Source: Candidatus Hodarchaeota archaeon
GTDB taxonomy: Archaea > Asgardarchaeota > Heimdallarchaeia > Hodarchaeales > Hodarchaeaceae
Direction of reading: 5' to 3'
NCBI GenBank assembly: GCA_029856365.1
Contig: JAHQWW010000062.1
Span: 1-21,784, forward strand
Length of the DNA: 21,784 nt
Shown here: positions 4,860 to 11,066 of the stretch, piece by piece
Layout: each line of letters begins with the position of its first letter
How positions within the stretch are numbered: position 1 is the stretch's first letter
Program-made: the position numbers and the translations under genes
The notes under the pieces: model-generated
What the model was told of the DNA's origin: nothing
Databases searched by the model: none
What the model saw: only the letters and a program-made list of their open reading frames with translations

Positions 4860-5045
4860 ATGATGAAACTTATAACAGTGCATCTACCAAATGATCAGGT
4901 ATTAGGACTTGACGAGTTAGTGCGCAGTGGACGGTACCCTAATCGGAGTGAAGCTATCCGCTTTGCTATCCGTGATATGCTGAAAGACGAATTGTGGAGC
5001 CTTCGTGCTAGTTCATTGATTCCCCAATCTCGAGAGGTTTATTAA
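4860..5045 (+). CDS. Ribbon-helix-helix (CopG/Arc/MetJ family) transcriptional regulator, CdrS-like
   Basis: 61 aa: alternating beta strand KLITVHL, helix A, then GRYPNRSEAIRFAIRDML typical of small archaeal RHH proteins; SD-like sequence upstream. Confidence 0.9.
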   Translation: MMKLITVHLPNDQVLGLDELVRSGRYPNRSEAIRFAIRDMLKDELWSLRASSLIPQSREVY

Positions 5046-5230
5046 TCCCACTATTGATTTCCAAGATAAGTAACTGACCAAAAGTGGGAGAAATAATCCT
5101 ACTATCAATAAGAGCAGTATATGATCAATGCTGTTTTTTCACAAAGAGCTAAAGATTCTTGATTAGTGTTACTCATTCCGAAACTGCATTTTAAGTAGTT
5201 GACTTTATTTAGTCTATTTTGGGCATTCTA

Positions 5231-5836
5231 ATGAATGAGAAAAGAACAGTTAAGCGTTGGCGAACTGTCAAGTCGAAAACTCCCATAATCGGAATTGATG
5301 ACGGGGGATTTGATCGGTTTTCTGAAGAAGATATAAATATCCCAGTTTTTGGCGTCATCATGAAAGGATCAGCATATGTTGATGGCATCATCCAATGTTA
5401 TCTTAAGAAAGATGATCCTCAAGCCACTACCACCATCACTCAGATGATCTTAGATTCAACGCATAAAAATCAGTTAAAAACAATATTTTTACAGGGGATC
5501 ACGATTGCTGGCTTTGGAGTTTTAGATATTGTTGAAATGTATGAAATAACGGGAATTCCTGTTATTGTTGTGCTTCGAAAATATCCCGATTATTTAAAAA
5601 TTAAAAGTGCTTTAGATAAGGCCTTTCCTACTGACCAAGATAGATGGCAAAGTATATTGCGTGCTGGAGAGCCGATAAAAGCGAAGAAGGATCCTATTCT
5701 TTTCCTCCAACTAGCTGGAATTCATCCAAAAGATGCTTATCTACTTATTAAGGCATGTACGGCCGTTGGTACTATTCCAGAAGCTTTGAGGATTGCTCAC
5801 TTCATTGGAGCAAGTTATTTTCATTATTCATATTAA
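5231..5836 (+). CDS. DUF99/UPF0215 family protein (endonuclease V-like fold)
   Basis: IIGIDDGGF, GVIMKG..VDG, D..AT, GITIAGFGVLDI, TGIPVIVV, IPEALRIAH. ATG 5231 preferred over TTG 5219. Confidence 0.88.
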   Translation: MNEKRTVKRWRTVKSKTPIIGIDDGGFDRFSEEDINIPVFGVIMKGSAYVDGIIQCYLKKDDPQATTTITQMILDSTHKNQLKTIFLQGITIAGFGVLDIVEMYEITGIPVIVVLRKYPDYLKIKSALDKAFPTDQDRWQSILRAGEPIKAKKDPILFLQLAGIHPKDAYLLIKACTAVGTIPEALRIAHFIGASYFHYSY

Positions 5837-5838
5837 AT

Positions 5839-5859
5839 GAAGCTTAAGCTTTAAGCTTC
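5839..5859. terminator. Inverted repeat between convergent DUF99 and GT2 genes, possible bidirectional terminator
   Basis: GAAGCTTAA-GCT-TTAAGCTTC: perfect 9-bp arms spanning most of the 14-nt gap and the GT2 stop codon. Confidence 0.4.
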
Positions 5860-7395
5860 TTGATGCCCTTTTTCTATCTGGGGAGTAGATATTTCCTCGT
5901 ACAGGAGAACAGCTGGTGCTAATAACCAGCTAAATCCGCCTCCAATTACAAATAAAGAAAAACTGCTTGATATGCACAAGATTCCGATTACAATTAAAAT
6001 TCCAGACAGACTGAAAATCAAAATGGAATTTCTAATCACATGTATTTCTCGATTCCAAACACTCCCTTCACTTAAAGGAGTATTTTTAAGTAATAATCCT
6101 TCTATTACACCAGAGATAATGAAAAGAAAAGCACCTAATGAGAATAAATAGAAAGGTATCAGCTGTAATAATCGTATAATCAAGTTTTGTTCCCTCTTCT
6201 CCCAAATAATGGCTAATAGAGCTGCTAAGGTATAAGATATACTTACCAGCGTCGGCATCAGGTATCCTAAATGAAATCCAAAGAACTCGCTTCGTAAAAA
6301 AGGGATATCATTTAGCATCATTATTGCCAAGAGTGTCACCAGAAAAACTATACTAATTCCTGAAAAAAAGGCCATTGCATTCAGGATCAATTCAAATTTT
6401 TTTTTCCATCCGAGGTAAGGTGAGGATAGGATCGATCGTAATCGTATTCGGAGGATATTACAAGCACCATGTGCCCAGCGCCACAACTGAGCTACTTGGG
6501 CTTTAGCTGTCTCAGGAACAAGTCCATACGACCCAATAAAATCTAGATATCTTCCCTCATAACCCAGCGATAGAATTTTCATTGATGTATCGATATCTTC
6601 AATCAATGTATCTTCAGAAAAGCCACCAATTTGAATTAGAACTTCTTTTCGGAAACAGCCTGTTGTACCATTAAAAAGTACAACCCCCCGTTGTTCTTTC
6701 GCTGCCTCAAAAACTTCATAAAACTGGGAATATAGAATAGAGTTGGCAGCTTGATATAATCTTTGTGTGTTTCTATAAGAGACTTTAGCTTGGATGTAAC
6801 CAACTTTTTTATCCGATATTGCCTTTGAGAATTCCGTCAATAAGTTTGGGACTGGGATGTGATCAGAATCTAAAATTACTATAAAATCCCCTCGAGTTAA
6901 ATTAAGCACAGCGTTAATATTTCCAGCTTTAAAGCCTCGTGTGTCTGGTTTATGATAAAATTGAATCTGATGTTTTTCGCAAAGCTCCTTTAACTGCTTA
7001 GTAACATTGGGATCCTGCCCATTGTCACTTACAATGATATCATAATGTGTATATTCTATTCTTAGGGCTCCCTTTATAGTCTTCTTAAGTACCGAATAGG
7101 GAGTACCATGGGAAGGTATAATAATAGTAAAAGACGGAGCTGTTATATAATTTTGATCTTGGGAGATAGATTGATACCGAAAATGAAACGCACCAGAAAT
7201 CATGTAAAAAAGATAGAATGCAAACAAAAATCCAAACAGTTCAATCATAAGAAGAAATACGTTAAGTAATATGGTTACAAAGTCTATATGAGAGAGGATC
7301 ATAATAATACTAGATATTGTATAAATAGGAATCACGATCAGAATAAGAACAGAGATGACAAGAGTTATCCACGATAAAAAGCGATATACCCACAT
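5851..7395 (-). CDS. Membrane-integral processive GT2 glycosyltransferase (cellulose synthase-like)
   Basis: D, DxD, D, QxxRW signature: VSDNG, FKAGNIN, LDSDH, FNGTTGCFR, TLIED, QLWRW; two N-terminal and about five C-terminal hydrophobic helices; no room for a PilZ domain. Confidence 0.9.
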   Translation of the reverse strand: MWVYRFLSWITLVISVLILIVIPIYTISSIIMILSHIDFVTILLNVFLLMIELFGFLFAFYLFYMISGAFHFRYQSISQDQNYITAPSFTIIIPSHGTPYSVLKKTIKGALRIEYTHYDIIVSDNGQDPNVTKQLKELCEKHQIQFYHKPDTRGFKAGNINAVLNLTRGDFIVILDSDHIPVPNLLTEFSKAISDKKVGYIQAKVSYRNTQRLYQAANSILYSQFYEVFEAAKEQRGVVLFNGTTGCFRKEVLIQIGGFSEDTLIEDIDTSMKILSLGYEGRYLDFIGSYGLVPETAKAQVAQLWRWAHGACNILRIRLRSILSSPYLGWKKKFELILNAMAFFSGISIVFLVTLLAIMMLNDIPFLRSEFFGFHLGYLMPTLVSISYTLAALLAIIWEKREQNLIIRLLQLIPFYLFSLGAFLFIISGVIEGLLLKNTPLSEGSVWNREIHVIRNSILIFSLSGILIVIGILCISSSFSLFVIGGGFSWLLAPAVLLYEEISTPQIEKGHQEA

Positions 7396-7428: not shown

Positions 7429-8274
7429 CTAAAAATCGAGTTTTCCAGCTAGGAAGTCAGACCAACCCTTCTTATATTTCTCAGGACTGTTTATATGATT
7501 CCAATAGACTGGAGGTTCTGGAAAATATCCATAAAGGAGCTCTTCTTTAGCTAGAGTAGGAAACACATCCTTCTCTAAGGATGAAACTTGTTTCTCTATA
7601 TATGTGAAAATCTCTGGTTCAAAAATGTAAATACCTGCATTAATGAAATTCAATCCTTTTTTTCCACCAGTGATAAATCGTGTAATTTTTTTACTTTTTT
7701 CATCAAAATCAACTTGGCCGTTACTATTTTCAAGAATAAACATTGTGGCTATTCCACCCTCTTTGATTTTTCGACGATGGAATTCTATTAATAAACCAAG
7801 ATTCAAGTCAGTGATTAGATCTCCATTCATAACTAAGAATGTAGACTTAAACTGTTTCTGGGCATTTAATACTGCTCCTGCAGTATCCAAAGGTGTATCT
7901 TCGGAAATAAATCCAATTTCGACACCTGGAATCTTTTTCTCTGAGAATTGCTGTTGGATGTGTTCTTGAAGATATCCTACTGAAAGAAAAATATCTGTTA
8001 AAGCATGCCGTCGTAACAAATCTATAGAATATTCAATAATTGGTTTATAGCCAATTGGTAACATAACAGCTGGAGTTGCAACAGAAATCGGACGAAAGCT
8101 GGTTCCTCGACCTCCGCATAATATCAGGGACTTAATAGTGTGAGCTTCTAGTGCAACCTTTAATGCTTGGATAATAAACTGCTTAACATTGCCGTGTCCC
8201 GCTACTTCTACCAAATTCAGCCAGAAAGTGTTTGAGAACTCTATCGTATATTTATGAATGTCCTTATTTTTCAT
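7429..8274 (-). CDS. Sugar-phosphate nucleotidyltransferase-fold protein (mannose-1-P guanylyltransferase-like), catalytically degenerate, with N-terminal RHH-like extension
   Basis: LILCGGRGT, LPIGYKPII, EDTPLDTAGA, FLVMNGD, INAGIYIFEP, SLEKDVFP. Catalytic Arg, Lys, the EKP motif and the late Asp are substituted. About 45 extra N-terminal residues; no C-terminal beta-helix. Confidence 0.85.
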   Translation of the reverse strand: MKNKDIHKYTIEFSNTFWLNLVEVAGHGNVKQFIIQALKVALEAHTIKSLILCGGRGTSFRPISVATPAVMLPIGYKPIIEYSIDLLRRHALTDIFLSVGYLQEHIQQQFSEKKIPGVEIGFISEDTPLDTAGAVLNAQKQFKSTFLVMNGDLITDLNLGLLIEFHRRKIKEGGIATMFILENSNGQVDFDEKSKKITRFITGGKKGLNFINAGIYIFEPEIFTYIEKQVSSLEKDVFPTLAKEELLYGYFPEPPVYWNHINSPEKYKKGWSDFLAGKLDF

Positions 8275-8311: not shown

Positions 8312-9316
8312 CTATTTTTCTCGTTCGGCAAGAAATTGGACTAAAATTTTTAGAAAAATAAACAATTCACTTATTTGGCTATCTTCACTATTCTGTGCCG
8401 CTTGGATGGCTTCTAATTCCTGTATACAGAACTTGGCATACTTATCTCTAACCTCTCTTACTTTATGATTTACAGAACGGAAGGCTTCTATAACAAAGTT
8501 TATTTCTTCTTCTGTTTTCTCTCCAACTGGTTTATTATAAATCTGTTTAATCTTAGAAGCATATTTTGTTTGTAAAACGAAATACAGAAATAAATTCCGC
8601 TTTGATTCTTGAATATCCCAATATGGGACTTTTCCGAATTGTTCTGGGTTTCCTAGTATGTCTAAGTAGTCATCTTGAATTTGAAATGCAATACCAGCAG
8701 CAACGATAGCATCATGTAATCTATCAGTAAAAATATCTCCACGGTTGGCTGCTAAACAACCTAATTTGACACAACCAGCAAAAACAATAGCTGTTTTCAG
8801 CTCCATAATTTTGATAACATGATCCATGTCAAAATCAAAATTGTGATTTAATCTATCTTCTAATTCAATAGCATTGCCTAAACTGACTTGATATGCATAA
8901 TCAAGAACAAGATTTAGAGTAGGTTCATTCTTTAGTAAGGTCAAAGCATAAGCATGAAGAACATCCCCATCATGAAGTGCACGATCTGCTCCATGAAGTA
9001 TATGAAAGGCTTTTTTTCCGCGTCTAATGGGAGCACCATCAATTAAATCATCATGAATCAAGGTCATGTTATGTAGAAGTTCAATGGCAATAGCAGCATT
9101 ATACGATCTCTCCATTGCCACTTCACGATATTCAGTGTCTCTAACTAACAAATCAGTTGTTACTACTATGAATGCTGGACGAAGTCGTTTTCCTTTGGTT
9201 GTTAGAATGAAATTATGGATTCGCTCTCTTGTTGGACTAACAAGTCCATTTATTGCTTGAGTGAGTTTTTTGTTTAATTGTTCCATAATTTCTGCATCTA
9301 TGAACTCTAGTACCAC
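8312..9316 (-). CDS. trans-Polyprenyl diphosphate synthase (IdsA/GGPP synthase family)
   Basis: GKRLRP, first Asp-rich motif LIHDDLID..RRGK, KTA, second motif FQIQDDYLD. GTG 9316 preceded by GAGGG is preferred; the track start is TTG 9346. Confidence 0.9.
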   Translation of the reverse strand: MVLEFIDAEIMEQLNKKLTQAINGLVSPTRERIHNFILTTKGKRLRPAFIVVTTDLLVRDTEYREVAMERSYNAAIAIELLHNMTLIHDDLIDGAPIRRGKKAFHILHGADRALHDGDVLHAYALTLLKNEPTLNLVLDYAYQVSLGNAIELEDRLNHNFDFDMDHVIKIMELKTAIVFAGCVKLGCLAANRGDIFTDRLHDAIVAAGIAFQIQDDYLDILGNPEQFGKVPYWDIQESKRNLFLYFVLQTKYASKIKQIYNKPVGEKTEEEINFVIEAFRSVNHKVREVRDKYAKFCIQELEAIQAAQNSEDSQISELFIFLKILVQFLAEREK

Positions 9317-9370
9317 GAAAAAAGCCCTCTTTTTCGCATTACACAAAATCTTGTGTTTCTTCAGTGCGCT

Positions 9371-9395
9371 GTTAAAAGATCACAGCTGTGTGACC
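9371..9395 (-). promoter_or_regulatory. Palindromic operator-like site 1 abutting a TATA-like element upstream of the prenyl synthase
   Basis: GATCACA-GCTG-TGTGACC at 9378-9395; on the minus strand it is followed directly by TTTTAAC (9377-9371). Confidence 0.55.
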
Positions 9396-9650
9396 TTCTA
9401 TCATCCTGTAGGTTCAATTTTTTGGACAGTATTTAATAGATTTCCTGTATCTTATAGGGAAGTCGAGATCAAGACTTGAAGTTATTTTGAATTGAATTAG
9501 TTTTAAGTGTTGAAATAAAATCAGTATAACAATTTGTTGAAACTATCGCATAATACTGTTTTTTTCATCTTGTATTGTCTTAAGAAGTCTCAAAATATTA
9601 TTATTTCATATTACACTAATATACCTGTTTATTGAGAGAGGATTATTACT

Positions 9651-9671
9651 TGTGATCACACACTTGTGATC
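9651..9671. promoter_or_regulatory. Palindromic operator-like site 2
   Basis: GATCACA-CACT-TGTGATC at 9654-9671 (perfect 7-bp arms), overlapped by the palindrome TGTGATCACA at 9651-9660. Confidence 0.55.
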
Positions 9672-9839
9672 TACGACACATGATTAAAAAAAAACGAAAT
9701 TTATCTTATTTTTTTCGGAATTTGAGATTCGGAGGTCTCACAGGAAATCATTTCCTTTGGTTTATGGCAATTCACTAGGTTTCCTAAACCAATAGGCTTT
9801 TTTAATATAATCGAAACTCTCACATGGATGATCTAACAA

Positions 9840-11066
9840 TTGCTTTTTCAGTTCTGTCCTTATTGTGGTAGGAAAACTCCAGAGAAGAACTTTTGTGTCT
9901 ATTGCGGAAAACAATTATCAAATACTAATATTTGTCTGTATTGTCACTCTCCGATTCCTATGAATGCCACTTCCTGTCCTTTTTGTGGCTTTAATGGCTT
10001 CCAATCGAGATTCAACAATACATTGGAAGATTTTTCATATCTCAACTGGGTTTGTACTAATCTCCGTTTAGCAATTTTTGTCATTTTTCTTCTTTCAACA
10101 TACTCCCTTACCCAATTAATGGTTGGATTTGTTTTCATTATCTTTTTTTCAGCTGATTTTATTTATGATAATGCTAATTTTCCCTTTTTTTCTCTGGTCA
10201 TAATGCTAGTTAGTAGTGTAATACTGATTGTGATTATAAATAAATGGTTAATATTCTCATCGGGAGAAAAACCTCCTAAAATAGACCAGGTTAAAGTCCT
10301 TTTCCTCTTACTCATCGTACTCATAGCATCTATCTCTATCATTGAAATTCTTGTTACACTCACCGATTTTGGATTGGATCTGATTAATGTAGATCCTTCT
10401 CTATCTTCTCCTTATGATGATTTCTTTAGAACTCCTCTTAATATTCTCGCTTTCACAATTTTGGTTACTATAATTGGCCCGATTTTTGAGGAGCTCGTTT
10501 TTCGCCATTTTGCAATATCTATGATGTTGAAACAATGTCAATCGAAGATTTTCATAATTAGTACAAGTGCATTAATCTTCAGTCTTTCACACACAACAAC
10601 AAACTTATTAGAAAGCCTTCGTTATACAATTTTACATATGGTAGCTACCTTCTCTATAGGAGTTATTTTGGGCATAATTTTTCTCCGCTGGGGATTAAAA
10701 TACGCAATTATTTTTCACTCTTTTTGGAACCTATTTTCCCTCGTAGTCCAATTACTGATTATTTATGAATCAGTTTTGTTAATAGATCTGATTTTATTAG
10801 TCTCCATGGCTATTACTTTCATCCTTACAGTTTATTTTCTTTTTTCGATTCGAACATCTCTACGTAGAATTATTTCTGAAATTACTCTCCCAACAAGACG
10901 TGAACTTCTTTTAATTTTAGTAAATTTCTTTCTGATCTTAACTTATGAGCTTTTTTTGCCTTTAATATTGTTAACTGCTGGTTCTAATTTTTTAACTGCA
11001 GGATTCACCTTCTTATATCAGTTTTGCGGTTTTTCAATCGGATTAATGTTAATTAACCGAGAATAA
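9840..11066 (+). CDS. Double zinc ribbon + CPBP (Abi/Rce1-like, CAAX protease type II) intramembrane protease
   Basis: Four CxxC pairs (CPYC, CVYC, CLYC, CPFC); FEELVFR (EExxxR), FSLSH (FxxxH), HSFWN (HxxxN); about ten hydrophobic helices. TTG start with TTTAATATA about 30-40 nt upstream. Confidence 0.9.
   Translation: MLFQFCPYCGRKTPEKNFCVYCGKQLSNTNICLYCHSPIPMNATSCPFCGFNGFQSRFNNTLEDFSYLNWVCTNLRLAIFVIFLLSTYSLTQLMVGFVFIIFFSADFIYDNANFPFFSLVIMLVSSVILIVIINKWLIFSSGEKPPKIDQVKVLFLLLIVLIASISIIEILVTLTDFGLDLINVDPSLSSPYDDFFRTPLNILAFTILVTIIGPIFEELVFRHFAISMMLKQCQSKIFIISTSALIFSLSHTTTNLLESLRYTILHMVATFSIGVILGIIFLRWGLKYAIIFHSFWNLFSLVVQLLIIYESVLLIDLILLVSMAITFILTVYFLFSIRTSLRRIISEITLPTRRELLLILVNFFLILTYELFLPLILLTAGSNFLTAGFTFLYQFCGFSIGLMLINRE

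Follow-up and report, generated by a model that had tools for sequence, protein, structure and literature searches.

A ribbon-helix-helix head fused to a catalytically eroded sugar nucleotidyltransferase fold in Hodarchaeales: a candidate nucleotide-sugar-sensing regulator

In NikR (PDB 1q5v, 2hzv, 2bj1) an N-terminal ribbon-helix-helix (RHH) domain is followed directly, in the same chain, by a ligand-binding domain, and in PutA an RHH domain is fused to an enzyme fold. The sugar nucleotidyltransferase fold, for its part, has been put to regulatory use in GMPPA, KONJAC, GalF and eIF2B gamma/epsilon, in which catalysis is lost or weakened. GMPPA is reported to bind GDP-mannose and to control GMPPB (PMC11228364; PMC9168903), and in GalF the Thr-Arg of the GXGTR motif is lost (PMC4643126). 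Here we describe a gene of a Candidatus Hodarchaeota archaeon (order Hodarchaeales; assembly GCA_029856365.1) whose product, called the fusion protein below, carries a predicted RHH head on a degenerate NTP_transferase domain. The gene lies on contig JAHQWW010000062.1, positions 1 to 21,784; this whole stretch of 21,784 nucleotides is referred to as the window. A preliminary description of the window, made from the sequence alone, had proposed that the protein is a pseudoenzyme sensor with a DNA-binding head. The coordinates of all features are collected in Table 1.

The fusion protein resembles NikR in the order of its parts, with the enzyme fold starting at residue 48 and no linker. However, the sensor of NikR is an ACT-like metal-binding tetramerisation domain, whereas the fusion protein has the Pfam domain PF00483 and does not belong to the NikR family. 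PutA offers the best structural match to the head (2rbf), but it is a fully active bifunctional enzyme of proline catabolism that switches between membrane and DNA, and its enzyme fold is unrelated. With GMPPA, KONJAC, GalF and eIF2B gamma/epsilon the fusion protein shares the fold and, as described below, eroded residues under purifying selection. Those proteins, however, exert their effect on a protein partner, for the most part by way of a beta-helix at the C-terminus, while the fusion protein has no beta-helix and carries a putative DNA-binding head. The closest proteins by sequence and fold are GMPPB, VTC1 and the ManC-type enzymes, which have in common with it the base-contacting Glu, the NGD motif, the sugar-contacting Asn and a Glu-Lys pair. 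It differs from them in lacking the Arg and Lys of the pyrophosphate (PPi) loop, the Glu-Lys of the F(V)EKP motif, the Asp of the WxD motif and the beta-helix, in a four-residue loop deletion, and in the extra RHH head. The same architecture, with homologous heads and a length of about 275-300 residues, is found in RHH_1::NTP_transferase fusions of DPANN archaea, Bathyarchaeia and Nitrososphaerota, which are annotated as sugar phosphate nucleotidyltransferases; unlike the Hodarchaeales protein, most of these keep the catalytic set, have a head that Pfam recognises and neighbour gap-pgk or polysaccharide genes. We found no paper describing RHH::sugar-nucleotidyltransferase fusions, and no experimental work in the literature on any RHH::nucleotidyltransferase fusion.

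The N-terminal extension of 47 residues is real coding sequence. An in-frame stop lies three codons upstream of the ATG at 8274. Between that ATG and the enzyme domain there is one further canonical start, a TTG at codon 21, and inspection of the reading frame revealed no ATG, GTG or TTG near codon 46. The start at 8274 is therefore real. The extension is kept in full-length homologues, and in comparisons with seven relatives the ratio of nonsynonymous to synonymous change (pN/pS) was 0.02-0.08 for codons 1-47, with many synonymous changes, and 0.05-0.13 for the body. The true start near residue 46 that the preliminary description had allowed for is thus ruled out by the missing start codon, the upstream stop and the purifying selection acting on the head. 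Of the 21 other genomes in the GTDB genus of the window, 19 have the gene as a single, stop-free copy. At the search threshold used it was not found in two other families of the class, and a further family has matches at 37-39% identity, full-length in two genomes. The fusion protein is more conserved than the products of both neighbouring genes, for example in the relative L026 (90% versus 86% and 69%). A decaying pseudogene was also considered and is ruled out by the single stop-free copies, the high conservation relative to the neighbours and the low pN/pS.

When the head was modelled alone with AlphaFold2 (AF2), the predicted local distance difference test score (pLDDT) was 85, and about 90 for the helices at residues 15-25 and 30-45; the strand was absent from the monomer models, both of the head alone and of the full-length protein. 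We aligned the head model exhaustively, with VIA-align, to each of 48,161 PDB representative chains. The top 50 matches were almost all RHH DNA-binding domains (Z 5.2-3.3, 40-47 aligned residues), and the RHH matches cover head residues 4-47, the extended N-terminal segment included. The best was the PutA-operator complex 2rbf (Z 5.2, 2.1 A, 42 residues), and NikR 1q5v aligned with Z 4.7 (1.8 A, 41 residues); TacA, AmrZ-DNA, HP0222, CopA, Arc, ORF56, omega, ParG, MazE and FitA were among the further RHH matches. Modest Z values are expected for 47 residues, and it is the uniformity of the match list that counts. A Foldseek search with the same model gave no match reaching E 0.001, its weak top matches being NikR and ParD. 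The head has the extended N-terminal segment, the helices of about 10 and about 15 residues and the Gly turn of solved RHH domains.

Homologous proteins may connect the head to recognised RHH sequences. The heads of the DPANN-type fusions P0134, P0137, P0138, P0189 and P0234 pass the Pfam RHH_1 cut-off (20.5 bits), and a profile of such RHH_1-type heads matches NikR (E 4e-5) and CopG by sequence. The Asgard-type head is homologous to the Nitrososphaerota-type head (hhalign probability 97%, E 2e-10). The combined head profile (A6) aligns with the RHH_1-type heads (A5) over 45 columns, in register and strand to strand, with a probability of 79% and E 1.6e-5, and head profile A4 aligns with A5 at a probability of 57% and E 1e-4. 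Because the Pfam-positive homologous fusions, the profile comparison and the structure search agree, we conclude that the head, as modelled, is an RHH fold, which supports the assignment in the preliminary description.

The head is also the most conserved part of the protein: among the 51 members of the clade defined below, 17 of 40 head positions are invariant, compared with 52 of 234 in the body. The invariant core comprises Y9, I11, F13, W18, L21, F33, I35, L38 and L42, together with the turn glycines G26 and G28. RHH proteins contact DNA through the strand face and the start of helix 2, and it is there that the invariant exposed residues H7, K8, T10 and K31 are located. A prediction of the head as a two-copy dimer scored 0.38 against a mark of 0.42, a value that speaks neither for nor against dimerisation.

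The body matches PF00483 over residues 48-266 with 95 bits (E 7e-27; cut-off 21.2). The best NCBIfam matches are mannose-1-phosphate guanylyltransferase (man1P_GTase) and relatives, all far below their equivalog cut-offs. In a phmmer search of solved proteins, human GMPPB (7d72_K) was best, with E 5e-31, followed by Leishmania GDP-MP and Arabidopsis VTC1; GMPPA is also a sequence match (E 1.6e-11). The full-length AF2 model (pLDDT 80) had VTC1, GMPPB and HddC as its top Foldseek matches, with E values down to 2.6e-19 (VTC1). Neither Pfam nor the alignments gave a C-terminal hexapeptide/beta-helix domain, the protein ending at residue 281.

The motif changes listed in the preliminary description are all present in the protein. 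Residues 54-70 read GGRGTSFRPISVATPAV, where active relatives have GGxGTRLRPLTxxxPKP; besides the substitutions in this loop, in the F(V)EKP motif and in the WxDIG motif (Table 1), PLDTAG stands in place of PLGTAG. The Gly loop, NGD (150-152) and INAGIY (211-216) are retained. In the AF2 model the loop at 56-75 has a pLDDT below 50, and in the alignment the sugar-side loop is four residues shorter than in active relatives. We mapped the residues on VTC1 by pairwise alignment, taking their roles from PMC9168903. Retained are Gly9 and Thr12 of the PPi loop (G55, T58), the acidic residue at position 80 that contacts the base (E125), Asn109 and Asp111 of the metal site (N150, D152), the sugar-contacting Asn173 (N212), the Glu195-Lys196 pair (E234-K235) and Trp217 of the pocket (W258). 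Arg13 and Lys23 (S59, A69), Glu162-Lys163 of the F(V)EKP motif (T202-G203) and the second metal ligand Asp219 (H260) are lost.

In VTC1, Arg13 and Lys23 bind PPi, and Asp111, Asp219 and Glu195-Lys196 are called catalytically critical (PMC9168903). The GXG(T/S)R motif is conserved in nucleoside diphosphate (NDP)-sugar pyrophosphorylases; in GalU the T20M/R21H change lowers Vmax by three orders of magnitude, and K202A raises the S0.5 for glucose 1-phosphate about 40-fold (PMC4643126). Of the catalytic signature, then, the fusion protein keeps D152 but has neither the PPi-binding Arg and Lys, nor the F(V)EKP Glu-Lys, nor the second acidic metal ligand. To judge from the alignments, the loss among catalytic residues is selective yet not total, as D152, E234-K235, R61 and the conserved K206 remain. 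The earlier claim of a selective catalytic loss with an intact scaffold accordingly holds for the Arg, the Lys, the EKP residues and the Asp, but has to be qualified for the Glu-Lys pair at 234-235 and for D152, which are kept.

To place these losses in the family, we read 195 fusion proteins at six positions: the Arg, the Lys, the first Asp, the Glu-Lys pair and the second Asp. The full catalytic set, RKDEKD, is present in 81 of the 195, and 39 read RKDEK with the last Asp replaced. The pattern [S/G][A/P/S]D..H, found in about 51-55, belongs to one clade with a Shimodaira-Hasegawa-like approximate likelihood ratio test (SH-aLRT) value of 99 and a stem of 0.47 changes per site. The bodies of the fusions group close together, apart from most unfused relatives, in a tree whose backbone is weak. 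Within the clade, conservation was determined on a set of 51 sequences that are 59-93% identical. All 51 have lost the PPi-loop Arg and Lys, the F(V)EKP pair and the WxD Asp, so the substitutions are shared by the homologues, a point that the preliminary description had wanted checked. Invariant in the body are G54, G55, E125, T131, G133, N150, D152, N212, E234, W258 and H260, and K206 is 94% conserved, while positions 202 and 203, the former EK site, are hypervariable, with 7-10 residue types. Such a pattern is what one would expect of a pocket in which something is still bound but the classical reaction no longer takes place.

Among archaea, RHH::nucleotidyltransferase fusions are widespread, and they are old. 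Because many of them keep the full catalytic set, the Hodarchaeales form is no isolated case but stands at the eroded extreme of a series, and because the nearest neighbours of the clade are fusions short of only one or two residues, the erosion looks stepwise. A homologue labelled Thorarchaeota at NCBI (P0051) comes from the same contig as G001:C2, which GTDB places in the window's genus; the fully eroded form is therefore, so far, found in one lineage only. Homologous fusions occur in Nitrososphaerota/Aigarchaeota, in Bathyarchaeia and, very numerously, in DPANN archaea. In Bathyarchaeia (L006-L008, 3743-6852) the fusion gene follows the GAPDH and PGK genes in the same operon, with a gap of 6 nucleotides (nt) after PGK, and in Nitrososphaerota (L003-L005, 4531-6837) it is divergent from GAPDH, with PGK nearby. 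These neighbours, in two phyla, point to a gluconeogenic link for those branches of the family. In a DPANN genome the fusion gene heads a polysaccharide locus; the neighbours of the other fusion members that we examined give no clear link. Since fusions accompany GAPDH/PGK or head polysaccharide loci, the family context points to regulation. The genome of the window has nine PF00483 genes, that is, eight besides the fusion gene, and six aligned paralogues all keep the Arg and the Lys, so that the fusion protein is not needed as an enzyme. According to the Pfam annotation of the neighbours, no PF00483 paralogue adjoins the RHH gene.

The reading that we prefer, and to which we give about an even chance, is that the protein is a nucleotide-sugar-sensing one-component RHH regulator. 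The N-terminal RHH would dimerise and read DNA. The former GDP-mannose-pyrophosphorylase-like domain would carry out no nucleotidyl transfer and would still bind a nucleotide or nucleotide sugar, and a ligand bound in its dead active site would alter the presentation of the RHH heads to DNA. The output would be transcription of the unit of polyprenyl diphosphate synthase, RHH gene and BcsA-like glycan synthase, tuned to the supply of activated sugars. We infer the dimerisation, the binding of DNA and of ligand, the identity of the ligand and the target promoter. Our guess of a guanine nucleotide-sugar as the ligand is based on the retained base-contacting Glu (E125) and the ancestry among GDP-mannose pyrophosphorylases. 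The pseudoenzyme-sensor proposal of the preliminary description gains from the RHH head, from clade-wide losses under purifying selection, from the invariant base and sugar contacts and from the intact paralogues; it has to be tempered where it excludes catalysis, since a residual or altered activity is conceivable.

Table 1. Features of the fusion gene and its neighbourhood (window coordinates; -, reverse strand;., no strand)
Feature	Coordinates	Strand	Basis
Predicted RHH head fused to degenerate NTP_transferase domain, 281 residues + stop	7429..8274	-	Open reading frame, translation, Pfam
Predicted RHH head, residues 1-47: strand ~7-13, helix 15-25, G-x-G turn, helix 30-45	8134..8274	-	AF2, structure search, hhalign
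NTP_transferase (GT-A-like) fold, residues 48-281	7432..8133	-	Pfam, Foldseek, phmmer
Degenerate PPi-binding loop, residues 54-70, Ser59 for Arg, Ala69 for Lys	8065..8115	-	Alignments
FITGG, residues 200-204, in place of the F(V)EKP sugar-1-phosphate-binding Glu-Lys	7663..7677	-	Alignments
WNHINS, residues 258-263, in place of WxDIG; invariant His260 for the second metal-binding Asp	7486..7503	-	Alignment to VTC1 Asp219
trans-Polyprenyl (GGPP-synthase-like) diphosphate synthase, upstream gene, 37 nt from the RHH gene	8312..9346	-	Pfam polyprenyl_synt E 3e-49
Membrane-embedded processive GT2, BcsA-like, downstream gene, 33 nt away	5851..7395	-	Pfam GT2 families
Divergent promoter region of the unit; operator candidates 9378-9395, 9654-9671 and 9778-9790, none established	9347..9839	.	

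Several observations weigh against the sensor-regulator. Residues 1-50 did not match Pfam RHH_1 (PF01402) at E values up to 10, PDB sequence searches with the head profiles A4 and A6 gave nothing meaningful and did not match NikR, and the hhalign comparison of a clade-only head profile with the RHH_1 heads was not significant. A Pfam RHH match was likewise absent in nine homologous heads of the Asgard, Nitrososphaerota and Bathyarchaeia types, and a search of the ESM Atlas for look-alikes of residues 1-47 gave no usable match. The RHH gene stands in the middle of its unit and not at the head, which is less typical for an autoregulator. With its sugar-side loop shortened, the protein may bind something other than a classical NDP-sugar, and because D152, E234-K235, R61 and K206 remain, some chemistry is conceivable. 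Finally, comparison of the promoters of relatives revealed no operator conserved across the clade.

Sites 1 and 2, the first two operator candidates in Table 1, are palindromes of the form GATCACA-N4-TGTGAYC. Across the 4.24 Mb of the genome, GRTCACA-N3-5-TGTGAYC occurs only three times, twice within 9347-9839 and once inside a gene on contig C86, with zero matches in the controls. Among relatives, site 1 recurs only in G012. Site 2 falls within an insertion of ~330 bp, which is present in only three of seven close relatives, and its sequence differs there. Because the palindromes are conserved in only one relative, while no clade member varies at the DNA-facing positions of the head, they too count against the regulator reading. 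The insertion itself (about 9440-9775) is present in the window, L038 and L042 and is flanked by two copies of AGGAAAYCTA; L037, L039, L040 and L041 have a compact bidirectional promoter in its place. It could be a duplication or a small mobile insert.

The third candidate is the inverted repeat GGTTTAGGAAACC, between two divergent TATA boxes and beside the conserved TATA. The repeat is conserved in most relatives, and variants of it abut a conserved TATTAAATA in about 13 of 17. At the polyprenyl synthase promoter, most relatives also have a conserved GGTTWAGGAAACC directly beside the conserved TATA. The repeat has only one other copy in the genome, which is intragenic. It could be an operator, or merely paired B recognition elements (BRE) or promoter core. 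The long gaps upstream of the gene in seven relatives contained no shared motif, and inverted-repeat scans of the Bathyarchaeia and Nitrososphaerota loci found nothing comparable. In the Nitrososphaerota locus L003, the spacer on the GAPDH side has an AAACTAA-N4-TTAGTTT palindrome (5566-5597 and 5793-5824); the stretch is found on both sides of a run of N, and an assembly artefact is the probable cause.

The gene neighbourhood raises another explanation, which we regard as rather unlikely: that the protein is a non-catalytic partner of the BcsA-like GT2 (glycosyltransferase family 2), its dead domain binding the donor sugar-nucleotide and gating or feeding the synthase at the protein level, with the RHH serving mainly for dimerisation or as a second, DNA-level output. 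The order polyprenyl diphosphate synthase, RHH gene, GT2 is the same in the window and in all 13 relatives examined, and the spacing to the GT2 gene is tight (33 nt in the window, 23 nt in L001). The GT2 matches BcsA (PDB 7lby) with E 8.5e-25; CelA and PgaC are its best NCBIfam matches, below their cut-offs. It has a QLWRW motif and no PilZ domain, the part through which c-di-GMP gates BcsA, which is a point in favour of this explanation. Non-catalytic members of the fold that regulate partners are known in GMPPA, in KONJAC (PMC9168903) and in GalF (PMC4643126). These, however, pair with a catalytic paralogue via the beta-helix domain that the fusion protein lacks. Moreover, the homologous head also occurs in more distant fusions that lack a GT2 neighbour, and pure dimerisation would not require the invariant residues on the strand face of the head.

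It is unlikely, in our estimate, that the protein still works as an enzyme, be it a sugar-1-phosphate nucleotidylyltransferase or some related transferase or hydrolase, whose site has been rebuilt around His260, Lys206 and Arg61, and that it supplies the donor for the GT2 and carries an autoregulatory RHH. PutA, BirA and NadR are precedents for an enzyme with an autoregulatory DNA-binding part. The RKDEKD members are in favour of this explanation: with so many fusions of the same family keeping the full set, the ancestor probably combined an enzyme with an RHH. D152 and E234-K235 persist, H260 does not vary and K206 hardly does, and adjacency to the GT2 gene suits donor supply. Yet the protein has lost both residues that bind PPi as well as the F(V)EKP pair, positions 202 and 203 are free to drift, and comparable single losses cost GalU 2-3 orders of magnitude (PMC4643126). 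The six aligned paralogues can supply NDP-sugars, and the stem of the clade is long.

An improbable alternative is that the head is a lineage-specific helical extension with a non-DNA role, in the stability or oligomerisation of a degenerate enzyme remnant, which the missing Pfam and PDB sequence matches, a Z of at most 5.2 (permitted for a two-helix unit of 47 residues) and the unformed strand of the monomer models would allow, but against which stand the almost purely RHH structural matches over residues 4-47, the in-register profile match, the Pfam-positive RHH_1 at the same position in homologous proteins and the extreme conservation of the exposed strand residues. We see only a slight chance for a dual-output sensor, in which the RHH head would set transcription of the unit and the GMPPA-like dead body would directly gate the PilZ-less BcsA-like synthase. 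A toxin-antitoxin pair of RHH antitoxin and nucleotidyltransferase toxin was rejected, as the body has the GT-A-like fold of sugar nucleotidyltransferases and not the Pol-beta-type MNT fold, and as head and body are fused instead of forming a pair.

To our knowledge, ligands have been established for few transcription regulators of archaea, and no such regulator is known to sense activated sugars through a dead nucleotidyltransferase. If the sensor-regulator reading is right, the fusion protein would represent a new class of one-component regulators linking sugar-nucleotide pools to gene expression. Hundreds of clusters, spread over DPANN, Bathyarchaeia, Nitrososphaerota and Asgard archaea, make up the family; all of them are listed as plain enzymes, and many genome annotations and metabolic reconstructions that count fusion genes as NDP-sugar synthases would then need correcting. 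The family offers a series from enzyme-plus-RHH to what may be a pure sensor, and nowhere in it is complete catalytic erosion under strong purifying selection seen more cleanly than in the Hodarchaeales clade. Hodarchaeales are placed near the eukaryotic root, which makes the likeness to the eukaryotic pseudoenzymes GMPPA and eIF2B of interest, as a parallel rather than as a claim of direct descent. If true, the dual-output sensor would be a precursor, in a close archaeal relative of eukaryotes, of the homeostasis of activated sugars that eukaryotes base on pseudoenzymes.

The polyprenyl synthase upstream has GGPP_syn as its best NCBIfam match, below the cut-off. Its start is probably upstream of the ATG at 9286, as the preceding 20 codons (9287-9346, KKRAFFVVLEFIDAEI) are conserved at the protein level in relatives. 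On the other side of the promoter region, a divergent gene (9840-11066) encodes a double zinc-ribbon fused to an Rce1-like CAAX-type intramembrane protease. Beyond the GT2 gene, a stand-alone CopG-type RHH_1 gene encoding 61 residues (4860-5045) adjoins a gene for Endo_dU (endonuclease dU; 5219-5836). The whole gene order of the window is shared by L001 (G001:C2, GCA_048882505.1), in the sequence M48 peptidase, lipoyl synthase, TFB, Rce1-like protease, polyprenyl synthase, RHH gene, GT2, Endo_dU and CopG; the Rce1-like gene has the same position there beside the polyprenyl synthase, and the CopG-type RHH_1/Endo_dU pair is conserved as well. The label Thorarchaeota under which NCBI lists this metagenome-assembled genome looks wrong, because GTDB places it in the genus of the window.

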